Shown here piece after piece: positions 6,227 to 36,750 of a stretch of DNA of 64,000 bases. The notes beneath the pieces were generated by a model, which saw only the letters and a list, made by a program, of their open reading frames with translations, searched no databases and was not told where the DNA came from. The number at the start of each line of letters is the position of its first letter. The first letter of the stretch is position 1. The position numbers and the translations under genes are program-made. The stretch lies in the NCBI GenBank assembly GCA_023229865.1, contig JALNYL010000005.1:4422-68421 (forward strand), in the 5' to 3' direction. The stretch comes from Minisyncoccota bacterium. GTDB taxonomy: Bacteria > Patescibacteriota > Minisyncoccia > Phycocordibacterales > UBA1550.

Positions 6227-6385
6227 TAACACCCCTCCCCAATAACTCTTGCACAAAGAATTCAAAAATTTTATGCGAGACGATGAAAAAAACGAGAGGA
6301 ATATCGAGATACTTCGAACGTTTTTTTCGAAGTCGTAGCAAAAATTTTCGGATTATCGTGGATAGGTTATTGGGGAGGGGTGTTA
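6227..6385. repeat. 20-bp perfect inverted repeat (taacacccctccccaataac / gttattggggaggggtgtta) flanking a 119-bp segment with an internal hairpin
   Basis: arms at 6227-6246 and 6366-6385 are exact reverse complements; inner hairpin acttcgaa/ttcgaagt at 6311-6333. Confidence 0.9.
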
Positions 6386-7776
6386 AAACAACACTACTCA
6401 TACTGGTGTTGTTTTTTGCACAGACCGCATCTGCGCAGGTTTTTATAAATGAGATTGCATGGATGGGGACGAACGTATCATCCTCGAACGAATGGATAGA
6501 ACTTTCCAATAGTGGCACGGAACAAGTCTCTCTTGAGGGGTGGATTCTTTCGATTGAAGGGAAAAAAGATATCGCACTTGTGGGGAATATTTCTGCGGGC
6601 GGTTTTTATCTTGTTGAGCGCACAGACGATTCTACGGTGCCGACAGTTGCTGCAGATGTTGTTTCGTCGTTTGGCGCGGGGATCAACAACACGGGAGCAA
6701 TTATCTCTCTTAAAAATACAAGCGGAGCAATCGTTGATCGCGTGGATGGTTCACAGGGGTGGCTTATTGGAGGGAACCAAGCGGGGGATAACACCACAAA
6801 AGATACTGCACAAAAAGGATTGAGTGCTTGGATGACCGGCACACCAACTCCGCGCGGTGCAAATGTTGGTGCATCGTCTCAGACACAAACGACGGTGACG
6901 ACACAGGAAACACCACAAGTGGTAGCCGCCTCTCAGTCATCTGCATTTCCTGTTGAGCCGCAAATTTTTACTGATGCGGGACCTGCGGCTCTCATTGTAT
7001 CAACGGGCGCAACCGTGACATTTTTGGGTCGCGTGTGGGGCCTCAAAAAAGAACCGATTGAAAATGCGCGCATGGTGTGGGCGTTTGGTGATGGCGGAGT
7101 GGCGGAGGGCGCTTCTGTCTCACACGTTTTTTATTATCCAGGAGAATACACGGTAGTACTCGACGCTGCGTCAGGATTTTATGCAGCATCTGATCGTATT
7201 CGTGTAACTGCGATAACCCCTAATATTTTACTACGTACAGGAGGCGATAGCACTCGTTCGTTTGTCGCACTCGAAAATAAAGGCAACGATGAACTCGACC
7301 TTTCTCTGTGGCAAATCGAGTCCGCAGGTAAGAAATTTATTATCCCCAAAAATACTTTCGTTGGCGCAAAGAAAATTCTCACCCTCGCGTCTGAAGTTAC
7401 TAACCTTGTGACACCATCGGGGAGTGAAGTGCTCCTTAATTTCCCAAACGGCACGCGTGTCGGCGCTCAAGCGACCGCAGCCGCTCCTGTTCTCGCAACA
7501 AATACTTTCGCGCCAAAAATAAATTCTGTAGTTCCGCAAGCGCGCGAAAAAGTAGAAGGTGTCCACAGCCAGGAGGCCTCGGTAATCGGTGCTCTCTCTG
7601 ATTCGTCAGCACCTGGAAAAGAAGATGGTCTGTGGCTTTGGTATTCGAGCGCAGCGATTCTCGGGGCGCTGGCTCTTTTGGGGTTGCGAGCAGTGCAGGG
7701 GAGTGGAGAAAAAACAACGTTCACCGCTGACGATTTTGAAATCATTGAAGAAACTGATAACACCGAACCGCACTAG
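6283..7776 (+). CDS. secreted/cell-surface protein with two lamin-tail domains (LTD) and C-terminal TM anchor
   Basis: signal peptide (LLILVLFFAQTASA), FINEIAW...EWIELSN LTD signature twice, C-terminal hydrophobic helix; start uncertain (ATG 6283 or TTG 6370), ORF-track start 5956 rejected because it overlaps upstream gene. Confidence 0.75.
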   Translation: MKKTRGISRYFERFFRSRSKNFRIIVDRLLGRGVKTTLLILVLFFAQTASAQVFINEIAWMGTNVSSSNEWIELSNSGTEQVSLEGWILSIEGKKDIALVGNISAGGFYLVERTDDSTVPTVAADVVSSFGAGINNTGAIISLKNTSGAIVDRVDGSQGWLIGGNQAGDNTTKDTAQKGLSAWMTGTPTPRGANVGASSQTQTTVTTQETPQVVAASQSSAFPVEPQIFTDAGPAALIVSTGATVTFLGRVWGLKKEPIENARMVWAFGDGGVAEGASVSHVFYYPGEYTVVLDAASGFYAASDRIRVTAITPNILLRTGGDSTRSFVALENKGNDELDLSLWQIESAGKKFIIPKNTFVGAKKILTLASEVTNLVTPSGSEVLLNFPNGTRVGAQATAAAPVLATNTFAPKINSVVPQAREKVEGVHSQEASVIGALSDSSAPGKEDGLWLWYSSAAILGALALLGLRAVQGSGEKTTFTADDFEIIEETDNTEPH

Positions 7777-31342: not shown

Positions 31343-33310
31343 ATGAATATCCATAAATTTTTAGCGAATGCGGTGGTTTTGGCGGGGTTTGTGGCGATAC
31401 CATTCATTGCCTTCATTATTCTTGGACAAAGTACATTTTTCCCCTTTATCACAGGGAAGAACTTTGCCTTTCGTGTCATTGTTGAAATAATGCTTTCTGC
31501 GTGGGTTGTACTCGCGTTTATTGATCCCGCGTATCGTCCAAAGAAAAGCTATCTTCTTGGTGCTTTTGCGGCGCTCATTGGTATCATCACTCTCTCTGCG
31601 ATTTTTGGAGAAAATCCTGCAAAGAGTTTCTGGTCAAACTTTGAGCGTATGGAAGGCGTCGTGACATATTTCCATCTCTTTGCATACTTCATCGTCGCAT
31701 CCACCGTGCTTTCAGTGCGTGATTTATGGAAGCCATATCTCAATCTTCATCTAGGTGCTGGAGTTATTATGGCCATCTATGGTGTGCTCCAGTGGGCGGG
31801 ACAGGTCAAGGTTGTGCAAGATGGGATCCGTATCAACGGCACTCTCGGCAACGCAGAGTATCTAAGTACCTACGCGCTCTTCAATATTTTCCTTGCGCTC
31901 TATATGCTCGTGCGTGAAAATTTCGAAACGACATCGGGTAATGTGCGCGCTGCGATATATGCTGTCATCGTCGTTCTCCAGACATTTGTCCTCTATCACT
32001 CGGGGACACGTGGGGCTATGCTTGGACTTCTTGCGGGGGTAGGACTCACGACGCTCCTCATTGCTATTTTTGAGAAAGAACGCAAGACGATTCGCAATGT
32101 TGCCATTGGGGCCCTTGTCGCCCTCGGTCTCCTTGTTGGTGGTTTTATCGCTGCCCGTGATACGGCAATCGTGCAGGGGAGTCCTGTCCTCTCTCGTCTC
32201 GCTGCTATTTCTCCATCAGAGGGCACCGGTAAGGCGCGTCTTATGGTGTGGGGGATGGCGTACGAAGGATTTAAAGAGAAGCCTATCCTTGGTTGGGGTA
32301 TGGATAACTTTGGTTATGTTTTCAATAAGTACTATGATCCAAATATGTGGGGACAAGAGCAGTGGTTCGACCGCGCTCACAACGTCTTCTTTGATTGGTT
32401 GATCGCGGGTGGAATCCTCGGACTCCTTGCATACCTCTCACTTTTTGGAGGAGCTCTCTTTTATATTTGGCGACGACAGAGTGGGCTCTCTGTCGTCGAA
32501 AAAAGTGTACTGACAGGGCTTCTGGGGGGATACTTCTTTCAAAATCTTTTTGTATTCGATAATATCACAAGCCTCGTCTTGCTCGGAACAATCCTTGCGT
32601 ACGTCGAGAGTTTTGGAAAAACAGAAACGCTCCCTGTTGTGGAAAATAAAAAAATAAATAAGTCTGAGGACGCAGAAGATTTGACCTTCATGATTTCAGG
32701 TGGAGCTTTTATTCTCGCTATTGTTCTTATTTATATAGTGAACTACAAAGGCTTTATGCAGAACACGACACTCCTTCGTGCATTATCGGAAAGAACATCA
32801 GAGGGGATTGCCCATAACCTTAATCTTTTTAAAGAGGTGCTCGCGTATAACTCTTTCGGGACAGCTGAAGCGCGCGAGCAATTGGGGTCTATTGCGATGA
32901 ATGGTCTTGATCGCTCGAAGGAGATTACTGAGGTTCAGAAACAATTTATCATCCTTGCCAGTGATGAGCTTGAAAAGCAGGTTGCAGAAGTACCAGGAGA
33001 AGCGCGTCATCAGGTTTTTGCCGGGTCGTTCATTGCGCGCACGGGGGATATCGATAAAGCAATTGGATACCTAGAAAAGGCAGCAGAACTTTCTCCAACA
33101 AAACAGGCAATCCTCTTTGAGCTTGGTAATGTGTATTACAACAAGAAGGAGCCCATAAAGGCTGAGGAAACATTTAAGCGCGCGTATGAGCTCGCGCCAG
33201 AGTTTGCGACAGCAGAGAAGTACTATTTGCAGGTCCTCCTCTTAAACGGCAAACGCGCAGAAGCAGAGAAGCTCTTTAAGGAGCGTCCAATTCAGGGGGT
33301 CTCGTTATAA
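31343..33310 (+). CDS. O-antigen ligase/polymerase-family (Wzy_C) membrane protein with C-terminal TPR repeats
   Basis: ~12 TM helices, HNVFFDWLIAGGILGLL Wzy_C-like motif, C-terminal TPR-like repeats. Confidence 0.75.
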   Translation: MNIHKFLANAVVLAGFVAIPFIAFIILGQSTFFPFITGKNFAFRVIVEIMLSAWVVLAFIDPAYRPKKSYLLGAFAALIGIITLSAIFGENPAKSFWSNFERMEGVVTYFHLFAYFIVASTVLSVRDLWKPYLNLHLGAGVIMAIYGVLQWAGQVKVVQDGIRINGTLGNAEYLSTYALFNIFLALYMLVRENFETTSGNVRAAIYAVIVVLQTFVLYHSGTRGAMLGLLAGVGLTTLLIAIFEKERKTIRNVAIGALVALGLLVGGFIAARDTAIVQGSPVLSRLAAISPSEGTGKARLMVWGMAYEGFKEKPILGWGMDNFGYVFNKYYDPNMWGQEQWFDRAHNVFFDWLIAGGILGLLAYLSLFGGALFYIWRRQSGLSVVEKSVLTGLLGGYFFQNLFVFDNITSLVLLGTILAYVESFGKTETLPVVENKKINKSEDAEDLTFMISGGAFILAIVLIYIVNYKGFMQNTTLLRALSERTSEGIAHNLNLFKEVLAYNSFGTAEAREQLGSIAMNGLDRSKEITEVQKQFIILASDELEKQVAEVPGEARHQVFAGSFIARTGDIDKAIGYLEKAAELSPTKQAILFELGNVYYNKKEPIKAEETFKRAYELAPEFATAEKYYLQVLLLNGKRAEAEKLFKERPIQGVSL

Positions 33311-33313
33311 AGC

Positions 33314-33341
33314 TTGACTTTTTCACCAAATCTGCTATAGT
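33314..33341 (+). promoter_or_regulatory. near-consensus sigma70-type promoter TTGACT-N16-TATAGT
   Basis: TTGACT 33314-33319, 16-nt spacer, TATAGT 33336-33341; 3 nt after ligase stop. Confidence 0.45.
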
Positions 33342-33347
33342 GGCCTT

Positions 33348-33428
33348 ATGTGAGTGCGCGGGAGGAAACTCTTGTGCGATTCATCCAACGAAAGTCTACA
33401 AAAACCCCCGCGAAAGCGGGGCTTTTTG
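33348..33428 (+). ncRNA. candidate ~80-nt small RNA or leader (promoter to terminator unit, unclassified)
   Basis: predicted TSS ~7 nt after -10, ends at ccccgcgaaagcgggg + T-run; an upstream gcgcggg could alternatively pair with the terminator 5' arm. Confidence 0.3.
33405..33428 (+). terminator. intrinsic terminator ccccgcg-aaa-cgcgggg-like (ccccgcgaaagcgggg) + T-run
   Basis: identical hairpin recurs at 37178. Confidence 0.75.
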
Positions 33429-33615
33429 TTCTTGTTATTTCTCTGGCGTGCTCGTTAAAAATCTGTATACTATATTAGTAAGTTTCGTGTATTCCTCTGG
33501 CTAGCGACTGCACTCACATATTAGACATTTGTTGGAGCTCGCACTCGCTGGCCAAAAGAGTACAGGAAAAACAGTCTTAAAGTTAAAAGTCTTAAAGTCG
33601 AAAGCCGGAATACAG

Positions 33616-33653
33616 AAAAGAGCGGGATTGCCTTCGGCAATCCCGCTCTTTTC
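33616..33653. terminator. bidirectional terminator (17-bp stem, ttcg loop) preceded by aaagttaaaag motif
   Basis: gaaaagagcgggattgcc-ttcg-gcaatcccgctcttttc. Confidence 0.75.
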
Positions 33654-33707
33654 CCGGTAATTATAAATGCAACAAAGAAACGAAAAAAGTAATGTATAAT
33701 GTAAATT

Positions 33708-33944
33708 ATGACAGTATTACCTTATGTATTTATTGTGATAGGTTTTAGTTTAGTTATGTGGCATAAACCAATTGCGCAATGGTTGTATAATCAACATAGG
33801 TCATTGTTCAAAACGATATTTTCATGGTTGATCAATGTGGACGCACCGTGGTTTCGCAAGGCGTATGACCTTGCAATGTTAGGCATGGGCATCATGTTTT
33901 TTATTGTTGCGTACTTCACCTACTTCGGTCCTATTACTCGGTAG
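33708..33944 (+). CDS. possible small membrane protein
   Basis: 78-aa hydrophobic ORF after a tataat box; weak RBS. Confidence 0.3.
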   Translation: MTVLPYVFIVIGFSLVMWHKPIAQWLYNQHRSLFKTIFSWLINVDAPWFRKAYDLAMLGMGIMFFIVAYFTYFGPITR

Positions 33945-34069
33945 TAATAACATGAAAAAATATTACACAGATTGGAAAACTATAACAATAACTTTTGGAG
34001 TTGCACTTGAGAAAATGGAAAATGGTGACAGCCACTATTGTTTCGTAAATAGAGTGGTATAATTTTCTC

Positions 34070-34744
34070 ATGTCACGTAATGCTCGTGTCGATGTTGGTG
34101 GAGAAATATATCACGTAATCAATCGTGCGAATGGGCGATTTAAAATATTTGATGAAGACAAGGATTATAAACTATTTGAGCAACTTCTTCTTGAAACAAA
34201 AGAACTGAACGGGATGCGTATCCTTGCGTATGTAATCATGCCGAACCATTGGCATCTTGTATTGTATCCCAAAAACGACGGAGATCTTGGTGTGTTTATG
34301 CAACGACTAACCAATGCGCACACAAGAAAGGTTCATGCAAAGACTGGAACAAATGGTAACGGACACCTTTATCAAGGACGCTACAAATCATTTCTCGTTG
34401 ACTCAGAAAATTACCTTCTTTCTGTCATTAAATATGTTGAACGTAATCCGGTGCGAGCAAAGCTTGTCATCAGCTGCGAAGATTGGGAATGGGGGAGCGC
34501 CTATTTTCGCTTAGCTAGAAAGAGAAAAAATGTTGAACTAATTGATCTGCCCCCTATCAACTTACCGATTGATTACAAACAATGGATTAACGCGCCAGAA
34601 AAGCAAGACGAGGTGGATACTATTCGCATTTCAGTAAACAAAAGTGTACCATATGGTGGAGAGGGTTGGGTGGAGAAGATGGTTGTAAAACATAAACTTG
34701 AATCCACTCTGAAATCTCCTGGCCGACCCAAGAAACGAATATGA
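34070..34744 (+). CDS. REP-associated tyrosine transposase / IS200-like Y1 HUH transposase
   Basis: HVINRANGRFKIF, HuH motif NHWHLVL, catalytic YQGRYKSF, YVERNPVRAKLV; tataat promoter at 34055-34060. Confidence 0.85.
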   Translation: MSRNARVDVGGEIYHVINRANGRFKIFDEDKDYKLFEQLLLETKELNGMRILAYVIMPNHWHLVLYPKNDGDLGVFMQRLTNAHTRKVHAKTGTNGNGHLYQGRYKSFLVDSENYLLSVIKYVERNPVRAKLVISCEDWEWGSAYFRLARKRKNVELIDLPPINLPIDYKQWINAPEKQDEVDTIRISVNKSVPYGGEGWVEKMVVKHKLESTLKSPGRPKKRI

Positions 34745-34874
34745 GTACAACAATATTAGACCACACAAAACGCAAAACAATGGTGGCTGTCACCATTTCC
34801 ACAAGAAACGAATATGAGTACAACAATATTAGACCACACAAAACGCAAAACAATGGTGGCTGTCACCATTTCCA
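34729..34874 (+). repeat. perfect 73-bp tandem duplication (2 copies) including last 16 nt of transposase ORF and one hairpin each
   Basis: 34729-34801 identical to 34802-34874. Confidence 0.9.
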
Positions 34875-35211
34875 CGAAATTAAACTTCGGGTTCAGGGGC
34901 TTCGATATAACGGAGTAATTGCAACTACGACACCAGAAACTACTATGAAGTATGAGTGGTCAGTAGACAAGACAGGTAATATTAAGGAACTTGAACAAAA
35001 GGTTACAGTAGGGGAAACAGAGGTCGAGGCGCATTACAATGCGAAAAAGAATGTGACTGAAATTAAAAAGAAGTTGGAAGGCAAGAAATATGGGAACCAT
35101 AGAGATGGTGACGGTAACAAAATTGAAAAGAAAGAAATTTTGCCTGGAATGGTAATTCTTGATCTTGTTACTAAAAATAGGGAAATGGTAGTAAGTTATT
35201 AATCAAATTCT

Positions 35212-35664
35212 ATGACAAAGAATACATTGTTAATCATCATACTCAGTGCCTTGTTGCTTGTTAGCGTTGTAATATGGCTAGATTCTCTGCATGGTTATTG
35301 CCCTGGTGTGTACATGGATAGTTCCGGGGTAGAATATTGTACTAAGCGAATTTCTGATTATTTCCCAGAACCGCTAGTGTTGAGTATTTTAGCCCTCTCC
35401 CTTTCTTTACTACCCTTCTCCCTCCTTACCTACTGGACCAAAGAAGAAGTCTTTCGCGCGTGGTGGAATCCAGCGATTCGCTTCTGGATTCCCGCAATTG
35501 TCATTGTGACAATTTTCACCGCTTGGATGGACAGTGGAAGTGGGGCAATGGGGGTTGTTGACTTCTCTCCTGGTCTCCCCATTCTTGTTCTCCTTTATTC
35601 TCTCTTCGTTATTACCTCACTTGTAAAAATCATCCGAACGTACTTGAGAACGAGAGGGAAGTAG
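35212..35664 (+). CDS. hypothetical integral membrane protein
   Basis: 150 aa, 4 hydrophobic segments; terminator downstream. Confidence 0.55.
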   Translation: MTKNTLLIIILSALLLVSVVIWLDSLHGYCPGVYMDSSGVEYCTKRISDYFPEPLVLSILALSLSLLPFSLLTYWTKEEVFRAWWNPAIRFWIPAIVIVTIFTAWMDSGSGAMGVVDFSPGLPILVLLYSLFVITSLVKIIRTYLRTRGK

Positions 35665-35688
35665 GTGATTGAATGAAAACTTAAATAA

Positions 35689-35722
35689 TACCCCCCGATT
35701 CGCCTATGGCGAATCGGGGGGT
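35689..35722 (+). terminator. intrinsic terminator taccccccgattcgcc-tatg-gcgaatcggggggta
   Basis: same core as 2598 terminator. Confidence 0.8.
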
Positions 35723-35730
35723 ATTTCGCT

Positions 35731-36750
35731 ATGATGGGGGTATCTATGGCAATTCAGATTTTAGAAAATGTGGCACTGGCGCCAATGACGACTATGCGCG
35801 TGGGTGGGGATGCGCGGTTTTTTGCGCGCGTGGGGGGTATTGAGGAGCTCTCGGAGGCTGTACTCTGGGCGCAGCGGAAAGGATTGCCGATCTTCATCCT
35901 TGGTGGCGGAGCAAATACACTCGTCTCTCAAGATGGTTTTGTGGGACTCGTTATAAAAATAGAAATGAAAGGAATCTCATACGATGGCAATCGTGTGACC
36001 GTGGAGGCTGGTGAGTGGTGGGATGATGTCGTGTGCGATATTGTTGCACACGATTTGTGGGGAGTAGAAAATTTGTCGCTCATACCGGGTACTGTCGGCG
36101 GTGCTGTTGTCCAAAATATCGGTGCGTATGGTGCAGAGATTTGCAACACGATTTTTTCTGTAGAAGCACTTGATATCGAAAAAATGCAAATAAAAACTTT
36201 TTTGCAAGCAAAATGCGAATTTGGTTATCGAGAAAGTATTTTTAAGAAAAACAAAAATCTTGTCGTTCTTCGTGTCACACTTGAGCTCAAGAATGATGGA
36301 GTCCCCAACACTGAATATGAAGATGTAAAAAAATATTTTGAAAATAAAAATATTGAGGCGCCTTCGCTCCAAGAAATTCGTGAAGCAATCGTCGCGATAC
36401 GCACTGCAAAGATGCCTGCGCCTCCACTCGGCACCGCGGGGTCATTTTTCAAAAATCCTGTTGTCGATATGACGACCTACGAGACGCTAAAAAAGGAGTT
36501 TCCTGAAATAAAGGCCTATATGCAAGGCGATAATACCGTTAAGCTTTCAGCTGCGTGGCTTATTGATCATGTGGGTGGATGGCGTGGTTATAGAAAGGGG
36601 GATGCAGGAGTGCACGAAAAGCAAGCACTCATACTTGTAAACTATGGTAACGCGAGCGCAGAAGAAATGTTGTCACTCGCTCATGAAATAAAAAATAACA
36701 TCAAAGAAAAAACAAATGTGACGCTCGAAGAAGAGGTGGTGATGCTCTAA
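35731..36750 (+). CDS. murB: UDP-N-acetylenolpyruvoylglucosamine reductase MurB
   Basis: FAD-binding PCMH domain (MTTMRVGGDARFF, ILGGGANTL), MurB C-terminal domain. Confidence 0.9.
   Translation: MMGVSMAIQILENVALAPMTTMRVGGDARFFARVGGIEELSEAVLWAQRKGLPIFILGGGANTLVSQDGFVGLVIKIEMKGISYDGNRVTVEAGEWWDDVVCDIVAHDLWGVENLSLIPGTVGGAVVQNIGAYGAEICNTIFSVEALDIEKMQIKTFLQAKCEFGYRESIFKKNKNLVVLRVTLELKNDGVPNTEYEDVKKYFENKNIEAPSLQEIREAIVAIRTAKMPAPPLGTAGSFFKNPVVDMTTYETLKKEFPEIKAYMQGDNTVKLSAAWLIDHVGGWRGYRKGDAGVHEKQALILVNYGNASAEEMLSLAHEIKNNIKEKTNVTLEEEVVML

Follow-up and report, generated by a model that had tools for sequence, protein, structure and literature searches.

The 64,000-nucleotide stretch of contig JALNYL010000005.1 analysed here (hereafter the window), which belongs to a genome of the Candidate Phyla Radiation (CPR)/Patescibacteria, most likely contains an insertion sequence (IS)-like "TIRtron" of about 785 bp. 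Including its duplications, the element extends over about 864 bp (34011-34874). It carries a gene for a Y1 HUH nuclease/transposase of the TIRYT type between long terminal inverted repeats (TIRs). The right end is present twice, as a perfect 73-bp tandem duplication, and the outermost 7 nucleotides (nt) of the left end are also re-copied. Similar re-copies recur at the ends of related elements, where their outer endpoint is fixed and their inner endpoint varies. We favour, with moderate confidence, the reading that the nuclease of this TIRtron nicks its ends at the fixed site and that illegitimate re-joining or re-synthesis then generates the duplications.

Re-copying was quantified in 43 gene-carrying elements with 77 gene-adjacent ends. 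The 6-nt tag that follows the core of the end palindrome recurred within 120 nt outward at 40 of the 77 ends, compared with 4.6% at random positions of the same loci (P ~1e-32), and 18 of the ends had an extra copy of the core. Left and right ends were equally hit, and tip re-copies were found at one end or more of 32 elements. All extra copies within 150 nt were oriented like the adjacent end. Nested direct re-copies of the tip are exemplified by the relatives' loci L016, L017, L022, L063, L067, L071, L073 and L080. Four right-end copies were found in L008, and in L002, L005 and L024 the duplication of the left end takes in the first 20-32 nt of the open reading frame (ORF). One left-end duplication was common to L005, L006 and L007 (three assemblies from different sources) and a 4-copy right-end array to L008 and L011. 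Since the same duplications occur in separate assemblies, the arrays are inherited and are not assembly noise.

The two boundaries of the re-copied segments behaved differently. At simple junctions, the tail between the core and the next unit measured 6-9 nt with a mode of 7, which is also the length of the tail in the window (ATTTCCA). The units at these junctions had variable starts, the innermost of them 57 nt before the core and others as close as the 3′ arm of the palindrome (0 nt). Over all re-copies, the starting points lay between 6 and more than 80 nt upstream. The fixed outer endpoint coincides with the terminus seen in L002 and L003, which share 785 identical nt between the left core and a point 7 nt past the right core and diverge fully thereafter. 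This comparison indicates that the whole unit moved recently and, together with the modal tail length, places the right terminus 7 nt beyond the core (core+7). The 73-bp unit of the window ends exactly at this endpoint. Junction microhomology in 12 perfect tandem duplications was 0 nt in six, 1 nt in four and 3 nt in one; the remaining case (24 nt) was a third partial copy. As microhomology at these junctions was no greater than expected by chance, microhomology-mediated slippage was rejected. Cleavage at a second site was also considered and rejected, because the 4-6 nt before the unit starts were unlike the nucleotides before the fixed endpoint and showed no consensus.

The anatomy of the window element is summarized in Table 1. 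A perfect 73-bp duplication including the last 16 nt of the ORF had been reported by an earlier, sequence-only reading of this DNA, and both Tandem Repeats Finder (TRF) and a repeat finder recovered it with 100% identity, which continues for one more base (C) beyond the second unit. Since the first unit includes those 16 nt with the stop codon, the protein is unaffected. The left-end repeat of GAAAATG had been overlooked. The flanking hairpins that were described are indeed inverted, but the symmetry is longer than stated and comprises 47-nt TIRs, the left arm being 79% complementary to either right arm. Within each TIR lies an imperfect palindrome of 7 bp, whose core is GGTGGCTGTC(C/A)CC. The palindrome AATGGTGGCTGTCACCATT is found in both right-end copies, and its reverse complement, with one mismatch, in the left end, the core of which (GGTGACAGCCACT) is a variant of the relatives' core GGGGACAGCCACC. 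No further copy of AATGGTGGCTGTCACCATT with up to 3 mismatches was detected in the 64-kb window, where 0.03 would be expected by chance.

The left TIR additionally contains an extended -10 promoter-like element, kept as TGGTATAAT or TGGTGTAAT in L002, L005 and L008. Given its distance of 6 nt from the ATG and the lack of a visible Shine-Dalgarno sequence, the transposase mRNA is predicted to be leaderless or near-leaderless. A sigma-70 -35/-10 scan did not call this element because it needs a -35 hexamer and the site consists of the extended -10 alone. When read inward, the palindrome of each end (34021-34045 on the plus strand, and the two right-end hairpins on the minus strand) is followed by GTTT(T/C), and a terminator scan of the minus strand flagged the two copies at the right end. 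The TIRs may shield the transposase gene from transcription that enters from outside. On its inner side, the right end (reverse complement TGGTCTAATAT) also resembles a weak inward-facing -10 element.

Table 1 Coordinates of the TIRtron and of neighbouring features in the window
Feature	Position	Strand	Remarks
Left-end re-copy, GAAAATG x2	34011-34025	-	TRF: period 7, 2.1 copies, 100%; outward minus-strand reading CCATTTTC / CATTTTC
Left TIR (left end), 47 nt	34020-34066		Imperfect palindrome AATGGTGACAGCCACTATT at 34021-34039; core GGTGACAGCCACT at 34024-34036
Extended -10 promoter-like TGGTATAAT	34055-34063	+	Inside left TIR; ends 6 nt before ATG
TIRYT-type Y1 HUH nuclease/transposase gene	34070-34744	+	224 aa
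HUH residues H60 and H62	34247-34255		
Predicted catalytic tyrosine Y122	34433-34435		KYVERNP
Tandem unit 1	34729-34801	+	Final 16 nt of ORF, complete right TIR and 7-nt tail ATTTCCA
Right TIR, copy 1	34752-34798		Hairpin 34779-34797; core 34782-34794
Putative element terminus and nick site	34801		T, end of unit-1 tail
Junction between units 1 and 2	34801/34802		...CCATTTCCA / CAAGAAACG...
Tandem unit 2	34802-34874	+	Exact copy of unit 1; ends at core+7 (34874)
Right TIR, copy 2	34825-34871		Hairpin 34852-34870; core 34855-34867
Flanking DNA right of element	from 34875		C at 34875 extends the repeat identity by one base
153-aa ORF	34741-35202		ATG overlaps transposase stop (ATGA, 34741-34744)
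More plausible start of downstream ORF	34948		ATG; MKYEW..., 84 aa
Non-coding gap, ~400 nt	33311-33707		After Wzy_C/TPR gene
Promoter-like site	33314-33342		TTGACT-17-TATAGT
Terminator-like hairpin	~33393-33425		AAAACCCCCGCGAAAGCGGGGCTTTTTGTT
Short tandem repeats	33573-33604		AGTCTTAA
Perfect 18-bp hairpin	33615-33653		

The encoded protein matched the Pfam family Y1_Tnp (PF01797; E 2e-15, 57.3 bits against a cutoff of 23), so that the 224-aa Y1 HUH gene between inverted ends that the sequence-only reading proposed was confirmed. Both HUH histidines are invariant in the family alignment. The catalytic tyrosine, however, had been assigned to YQGRY, whose E. coli counterpart is WQPRF. This assignment was wrong, since Y115 of E. 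coli TnpA-REP (PDB 4er8) and Y132 of ISDra2 TnpA align with Y122, which lies in KYVERNP and is invariant. With a profile of 39 family members, the top PDB match was 4er8, followed by ISDra2 TnpA (2xm3). An AlphaFold (AF2) model with a predicted local distance difference test score (pLDDT) of 75.7 gave the same order in Foldseek, again with 4er8 at the top (E 3e-7); ISDra2, IS200 and IS608 TnpA were the lower-ranked sequence and fold matches. The protein scored 76.7 bits with the NCBIfam model REP_Tyr_transpos (NF047646; cutoff 80), the equivalog of REP-associated tyrosine transposases (RAYTs; REP, repetitive extragenic palindromic sequence), and 16 bits with the IS200 model NF033573 (cutoff 55). 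These sequence and model comparisons support an HUH/Y1 enzyme nearer to RAYTs than to IS200. Its C-terminal extension of about 85 aa is conserved and helical, is modelled with a pLDDT of 50-70 and terminates in an AT-hook-like SPGRPKK. No Pfam domain was found in this extension at E ≤ 0.1, including helix-turn-helix (HTH) domains and Bac_DnaA_C.

A protein database contained 2947 relatives at E ≤ 1e-5. The top 120 are 66-77% identical to the window protein and 210-243 aa long (nearly all 222-228), and those with names include Pace-, Kaiser-, Yonath- and Nomurabacteria as well as other Parcubacteria. The window protein itself is annotated in the database as belonging to a "Candidatus Pacebacteria" metagenome-assembled genome (MAG). 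The genomic contexts of the relatives examined all differ: ftsZ/ftsA in one case, a position after dnaJ and an acyltransferase gene in another, and a position between an RHS toxin gene and tyrS in a third. About 50 relatives have conserved ends on both sides, with the left end at the same distance from the ATG. The left-end sequence is (A)ATGGGGACAGCCACCATTGTTT...TGGTATAAT, which the right end repeats in inverted orientation. Two MAGs, MFTH01 and JBAQCU01, have at least two copies of the element. In the latter, a Minisyncoccia contig (JBAQCU010000039.1, 1-3460; L134) carries two TIRYT genes within 3.4 kb, each with a duplicated right end, and a solo right end is found on a second contig (L144). 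Such sequences indicate that some CPR genomes carry several copies of the element.

More distant relatives on plasmids of cultured bacteria (27-29% identity) have TIRs with a GGGGWSAS motif (GGGGACAG and GGGGTCAG). The P. aeruginosa plasmid element has a perfect 32-nt TIR starting with AAAGGGGACAG and a degenerate second left-end copy 65 nt upstream; the R. rubrum plasmid element has GGGGTCAGACCCC and TTAAAAGGGGTCAGACCCC in its TIR. In a clade with about 50% identity to the window protein (L060, L063, L064, L067, L068, L071, L073, L078-L080 and L082), the gene runs into the right TIR and the stop codon TGA lies in the palindrome loop (...aatggtggcTGAcccc), so that the TIR encodes the final residues of the protein. 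Phage records gave one weak match, and exact-protein look-ups of the two genes flanking the window element returned only contigs of the same organism.

Dispersed copies of the ends were sought by a genome scan with ATGGTGGCTGTCMCCATT, and the counts given here are those among the matches listed, with coding coincidences removed. The same end sequence was found in many CPR MAGs and in unrelated phyla. It often formed inverted (minus/plus) doublets 35-60 nt apart, which leaves no room for a gene. The CPR genomes sampled had at least 21 gene-adjacent end arrays, at least 37 solo arrays and at least 6 gene-less doublets, and the motif formed at least 8 blocks in one alphaproteobacterial MAG and at least 7 in a gammaproteobacterial MAG. 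These solo arrays and gene-less doublets show that the family leaves derivatives resembling REPs or miniature inverted-repeat transposable elements (MITEs) in some genomes. The REP/REPIN idea of the sequence-only reading thus gained some support at the level of the family, in other CPR and proteobacterial genomes, but the window contained no further copies. None was found either in the 20-kb loci of three relatives (60 kb in all). The stem is not preceded by a GTAG tag on its 5′ side, where the sequence reads AAAC or AAAG. Matches in Ilumatobacteraceae/Actinomycetota (L092, L106, L109, L114, L121, L138, L149, L158 and L165) consist of an 18-mer, ATGGTGGCTGTCACCATT, inside a conserved coding gene. 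Their flanks show coding-like conservation, and a second, degenerate copy is found about 260 nt away on the other strand. These matches were taken as coincidence without relation to the element. Further coding coincidences were an MVAVPI membrane protein and a pilin-like N-terminus.

By its sequence, the element is filed as a TIRYT/TIRtron, that is, neither as a classic REP-associated RAYT system nor as a member of IS200/IS605. TIRYTs/TIRtrons are RAYT-like genes flanked by long TIRs instead of REPs, many of these TIRs share the motif GGGGWSAS, and TIR families leave dispersed derivatives (Di Nocera, De Gregorio & Rocco 2013, PMC3733652). Quentin, Siguier, Chandler & Fichant (2018, PMC6006769) equated TIRYTs with their TnpA-Y1 subclass 2.1, the counterpart of Group 1 in the RAYT scheme of Bertels et al. 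2017. Members of this subclass lack REPs, have a Y---NP motif and a median length of 238 aa, and are extended at the C-terminus by a part with an HTH-like domain (Bac_DnaA_C, HTH_23 or HTH_28). Our provisional assignment to subclass 2.1 is based on motifs, length and TIR type. The window element agrees with these descriptions in its RAYT-like Y1 HUH protein, which falls in the range of about 220-240 aa and is extended at the C-terminus, its Y---NP tyrosine motif followed by a conserved serine (WGSA), its low copy number and the position of its gene between long TIRs, whose copies at times occur solo, in dimers or in clusters. GGGGWSAS is matched at 8/8 positions by the relatives' GGGGACAG and at 7/8 by GGTGACAG of the window left end. 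The differences are an HUH motif of NHWH, where the published table gives NHVH or NH[YF]H, an AT-hook-like terminus with no HTH or Bac_DnaA_C domain detected by Pfam, and a CPR/Patescibacteria host, which lies outside the scope of the published surveys. No description of nested tip re-copying with a fixed outer endpoint was found in the portions of PMC3733652 and PMC6006769 available to us.

Two better known systems bear on how such an enzyme might act. E. coli TnpA-REP is the best match in both sequence and fold, with aligned HUH and tyrosine residues. Its gene also lies between inverted copies of a short palindrome, and its action is presumed to be on folded single-stranded DNA (ssDNA). However, at 165 aa it lacks the long extension at the C-terminus, its RAYT gene is not considered mobile, and its GTAG-tagged REPs number hundreds per genome. 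Its flanks are REPs or bacterial interspersed mosaic elements (BIMEs), whereas the window gene is flanked by 47-nt promoter-bearing TIRs. The TnpA proteins of IS200/IS605 (IS608 and ISDra2) share the Y1 HUH fold and serve as our model for the proposed mechanism, in that they cut ssDNA at a position defined by its distance from an imperfect, subterminal hairpin. They differ in being about 130-155 aa long, with the core only and a Y---Q motif, as opposed to the 224 aa and YVERNP of the window protein. Moreover, the IS200/IS605 ends are not inverted repeats and have both hairpins on one strand, while the window TIRs read outward on opposite strands, and in IS200/IS605 a guide tetranucleotide recognises the cleavage sites through base pairing.

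Illegitimate recombination in the rolling-circle replicons pC194 and M13 has classic hot spots at the nick sites of their HUH Rep proteins, where one endpoint is fixed. Like the tip re-copies, these events have a second endpoint that is variable and little or no homology between the two. They involve plasmid and phage replication initiators and yield mostly deletions, unlike the local tandem duplications at transposon ends found here.

By analogy with TnpA-REP, IS608 and ISDra2, the TIRYT would bind the folded palindrome on ssDNA, and the fixed endpoint of the re-copies would be its cleavage site. The palindrome strand would be cut about 7 nt after the core, that is, about 4 nt past the 3′ foot of the stem. 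With palindrome and tail read outward, this would be the plus strand at the right end and the minus strand at the left end. The cut would leave a 3′-OH on the element tip and link the tyrosine to the flank. The tip might then be joined to, or re-synthesised from, a variable upstream point without homology. The segment from that point to the terminus would consequently be present twice, as in the 73-bp right-end and 7-nt left-end duplications of the window. A stronger version, in which the re-copies are the direct product of an undescribed TIRYT reaction with repeated distance-defined cleavage and homology-independent joining or re-priming, appears to us rather doubtful, although worth stating. 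If it were true, arrays and clusters of TIR- or REP-like units would be made de novo and could seed solo copies and inverted doublets, and sequence footprints would reveal where an entire class of uncharacterised enzymes cuts.

Several observations weigh against nicking by the enzyme as the source of the duplications. The putative cleavage at core+7 is deduced solely from footprints. Copies vary in the 3-4 nt just inside the endpoint, also when they come from the same genome (L100 vs L120), and no dinucleotide is conserved there; with such variable nucleotides, distance would have to determine the position of the cut, unlike in IS608, where cleavage is guided by base pairing. At -3.8 to -5.7 kcal/mol, the palindrome is weak, and it has a conserved T·C mismatch in 86% of the ends with little compensatory change. 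The stem is mostly invariant, and compensated variants (GGTG/CACC, GGGG/CCCC and AAA/TTT flanks) are about as many as uncompensated ones. It is conceivable that the ends are recognised as double-stranded DNA. The end re-copies showed no bias to the G-rich strand (20/52 vs 18/39, P = 0.52) in a GC-skew test of replication strand, which is weak on such short contigs, and so give no support to a lagging-strand-template mechanism. Finally, neither an empty site nor a target duplication was found for the window locus.

Other explanations of the duplications concern the data themselves and DNA replication. The window comes from a MAG, and assemblers can mis-count perfect short tandem repeats, although they usually collapse repeats rather than invent them. 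An artefact, which the sequence-only reading had named as a possible refutation, is made unlikely by an assembly of SRR18595301. Two k=31 Logan contigs from this run match the window exactly at 33515-34758 and 34846-36207; the first ends 30 nt into the unit and the second has the final 30 nt of the repeated sequence at its start. Such breaks at the unit boundaries are expected of a de Bruijn graph in which two different sequences lead into the unit and two lead out of it, a branching for which the reads must contain k-mers that span the junction between units. The graph gives a copy number of at least two without an exact count, and we treat these contigs as an independent assembly method, not as an independent sample. 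As equivalent duplications also recur across independent assemblies of relatives, an assembly artefact is scarcely credible. The sequence-only reading attributed the duplication to very recent activity or to replication slippage at the hairpin. A recent origin is probable as the copies are perfect, while slippage fits poorly. Enzyme-independent slippage or template switching might be triggered by the palindrome or a protein tightly bound to the DNA, as hairpins and bound proteins stall polymerases, and the units of 6-10 nt resemble slippage products. Once two copies exist, expansion is easy, and slippage would explain the later growth of arrays such as those of L016, L100 and L182. It does not explain well how arrays originate: the first step needs direct repeats, whereas 10 of the 12 perfect duplications have 0-1 nt of microhomology. 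Nor are the boundaries centred on the hairpin, one being fixed about 4 nt past the 3′ foot and the other variable, at times more than 50 nt away in the ORF. The pattern also lies on the outward side of the ends (70/252, compared with 18/252 in the inward control). We therefore regard slippage as the primary cause as unlikely.

The nature of the element itself can also be read in other ways. In a classic REP/RAYT system (REPtron), the gene would be a domesticated single-copy RAYT whose flanking hairpins belong to an abundant REP/REPIN population dispersed throughout the genome, typically with more than 100 copies and often GTAG-tagged, and the extra right-end hairpin would be a second flanking REP. 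The TnpA-REP match, the NCBIfam RAYT score just below its cutoff, the inverted flanking copies and the dispersed solo copies and inverted doublets in other genomes are in keeping with this view. The sequence-only reading had also called the gene a REP-associated tyrosine transposase, which holds for the RAYT-like enzyme, with 4er8 as top match and Y---NP, but not for the system as a whole. Hairpin copies are absent from the rest of the window and from the 3 x 20 kb of relatives, no GTAG precedes the stem, the gene lies between 47-nt TIRs with a promoter inside, which fall on the TIRYT side of the published TIRYT/RAYT distinction, and identical whole elements in different flanks point to self-mobility. 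Furthermore, the second right-end copy holds the 16 ORF nucleotides, 100% identical and in register, which marks it as a local tandem duplication and not an independent REP. A REPtron is thus improbable here. Even less probable, in our judgement, is a domesticated host gene whose ends are its promoter and terminator and whose duplications are neutral scars. The high identity and constant length across many CPR lineages, the usual single copy per contig, the TGGTATAAT promoter of the left end and the terminator-like inward palindromes followed by GTTT could all be accommodated by domestication. Against it stand the lack of synteny among relatives and the identical copies in different flanks, together with MAGs that have two or more copies, gene-less doublets, solo TIRs and distant relatives on plasmids. 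Compared with these explanations, a mobile TIRtron nicked at a fixed site by its own nuclease accounts best for the data, at the strength given above.

The window element lies between a small membrane-protein gene on one side and, on the other, ORFs without assignment upstream of murB. The 153-aa ORF that starts at the transposase stop runs through both right-end copies. A gene caller would probably report it as a chimeric protein with an N-terminus derived from the TIR and the duplication; the ATG farther downstream is a more plausible start, and the resulting protein has no Pfam match. TIRtron ends break short-read assemblies and yield spurious chimeric ORFs such as this one. The non-coding gap after the Wzy_C/TPR gene, with its promoter-like site, hairpins and short tandem repeats (Table 1), may encode one or two small RNAs. 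Rfam found no family in the window and none above noise at relaxed thresholds in 33300-34100. The window contains no tRNA gene as a possible target and no match to PADLOC defence models. At L002, a gene for a 352-aa reverse transcriptase (RVT_1; 6316-7374) lies about 2.6 kb upstream of the TIRYT element, beside ftsZ, and may belong to a retron or a group II intron-like element.

The element described here is a further TIRYT, a known but uncharacterised kind. TIRYT/subclass-2.1 enzymes form the second largest group of Y1 HUH proteins and are biochemically uncharacterised; they may serve self-movement, movement of TIRs or another role. The CPR clade is very large and highly conserved, with thousands of database members, and provides evidence both for movement of the whole unit and for gene-less TIR derivatives. 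The recurrent re-copying with a fixed endpoint is the part most worth pursuing, because it predicts a cut site and may explain clusters of end repeats. This natural footprint, an endpoint fixed 7 nt outside the core and junctions without microhomology, predicts where the enzymes would cut. It also suggests a route by which clusters of end repeats beside RAYT-like genes might arise.

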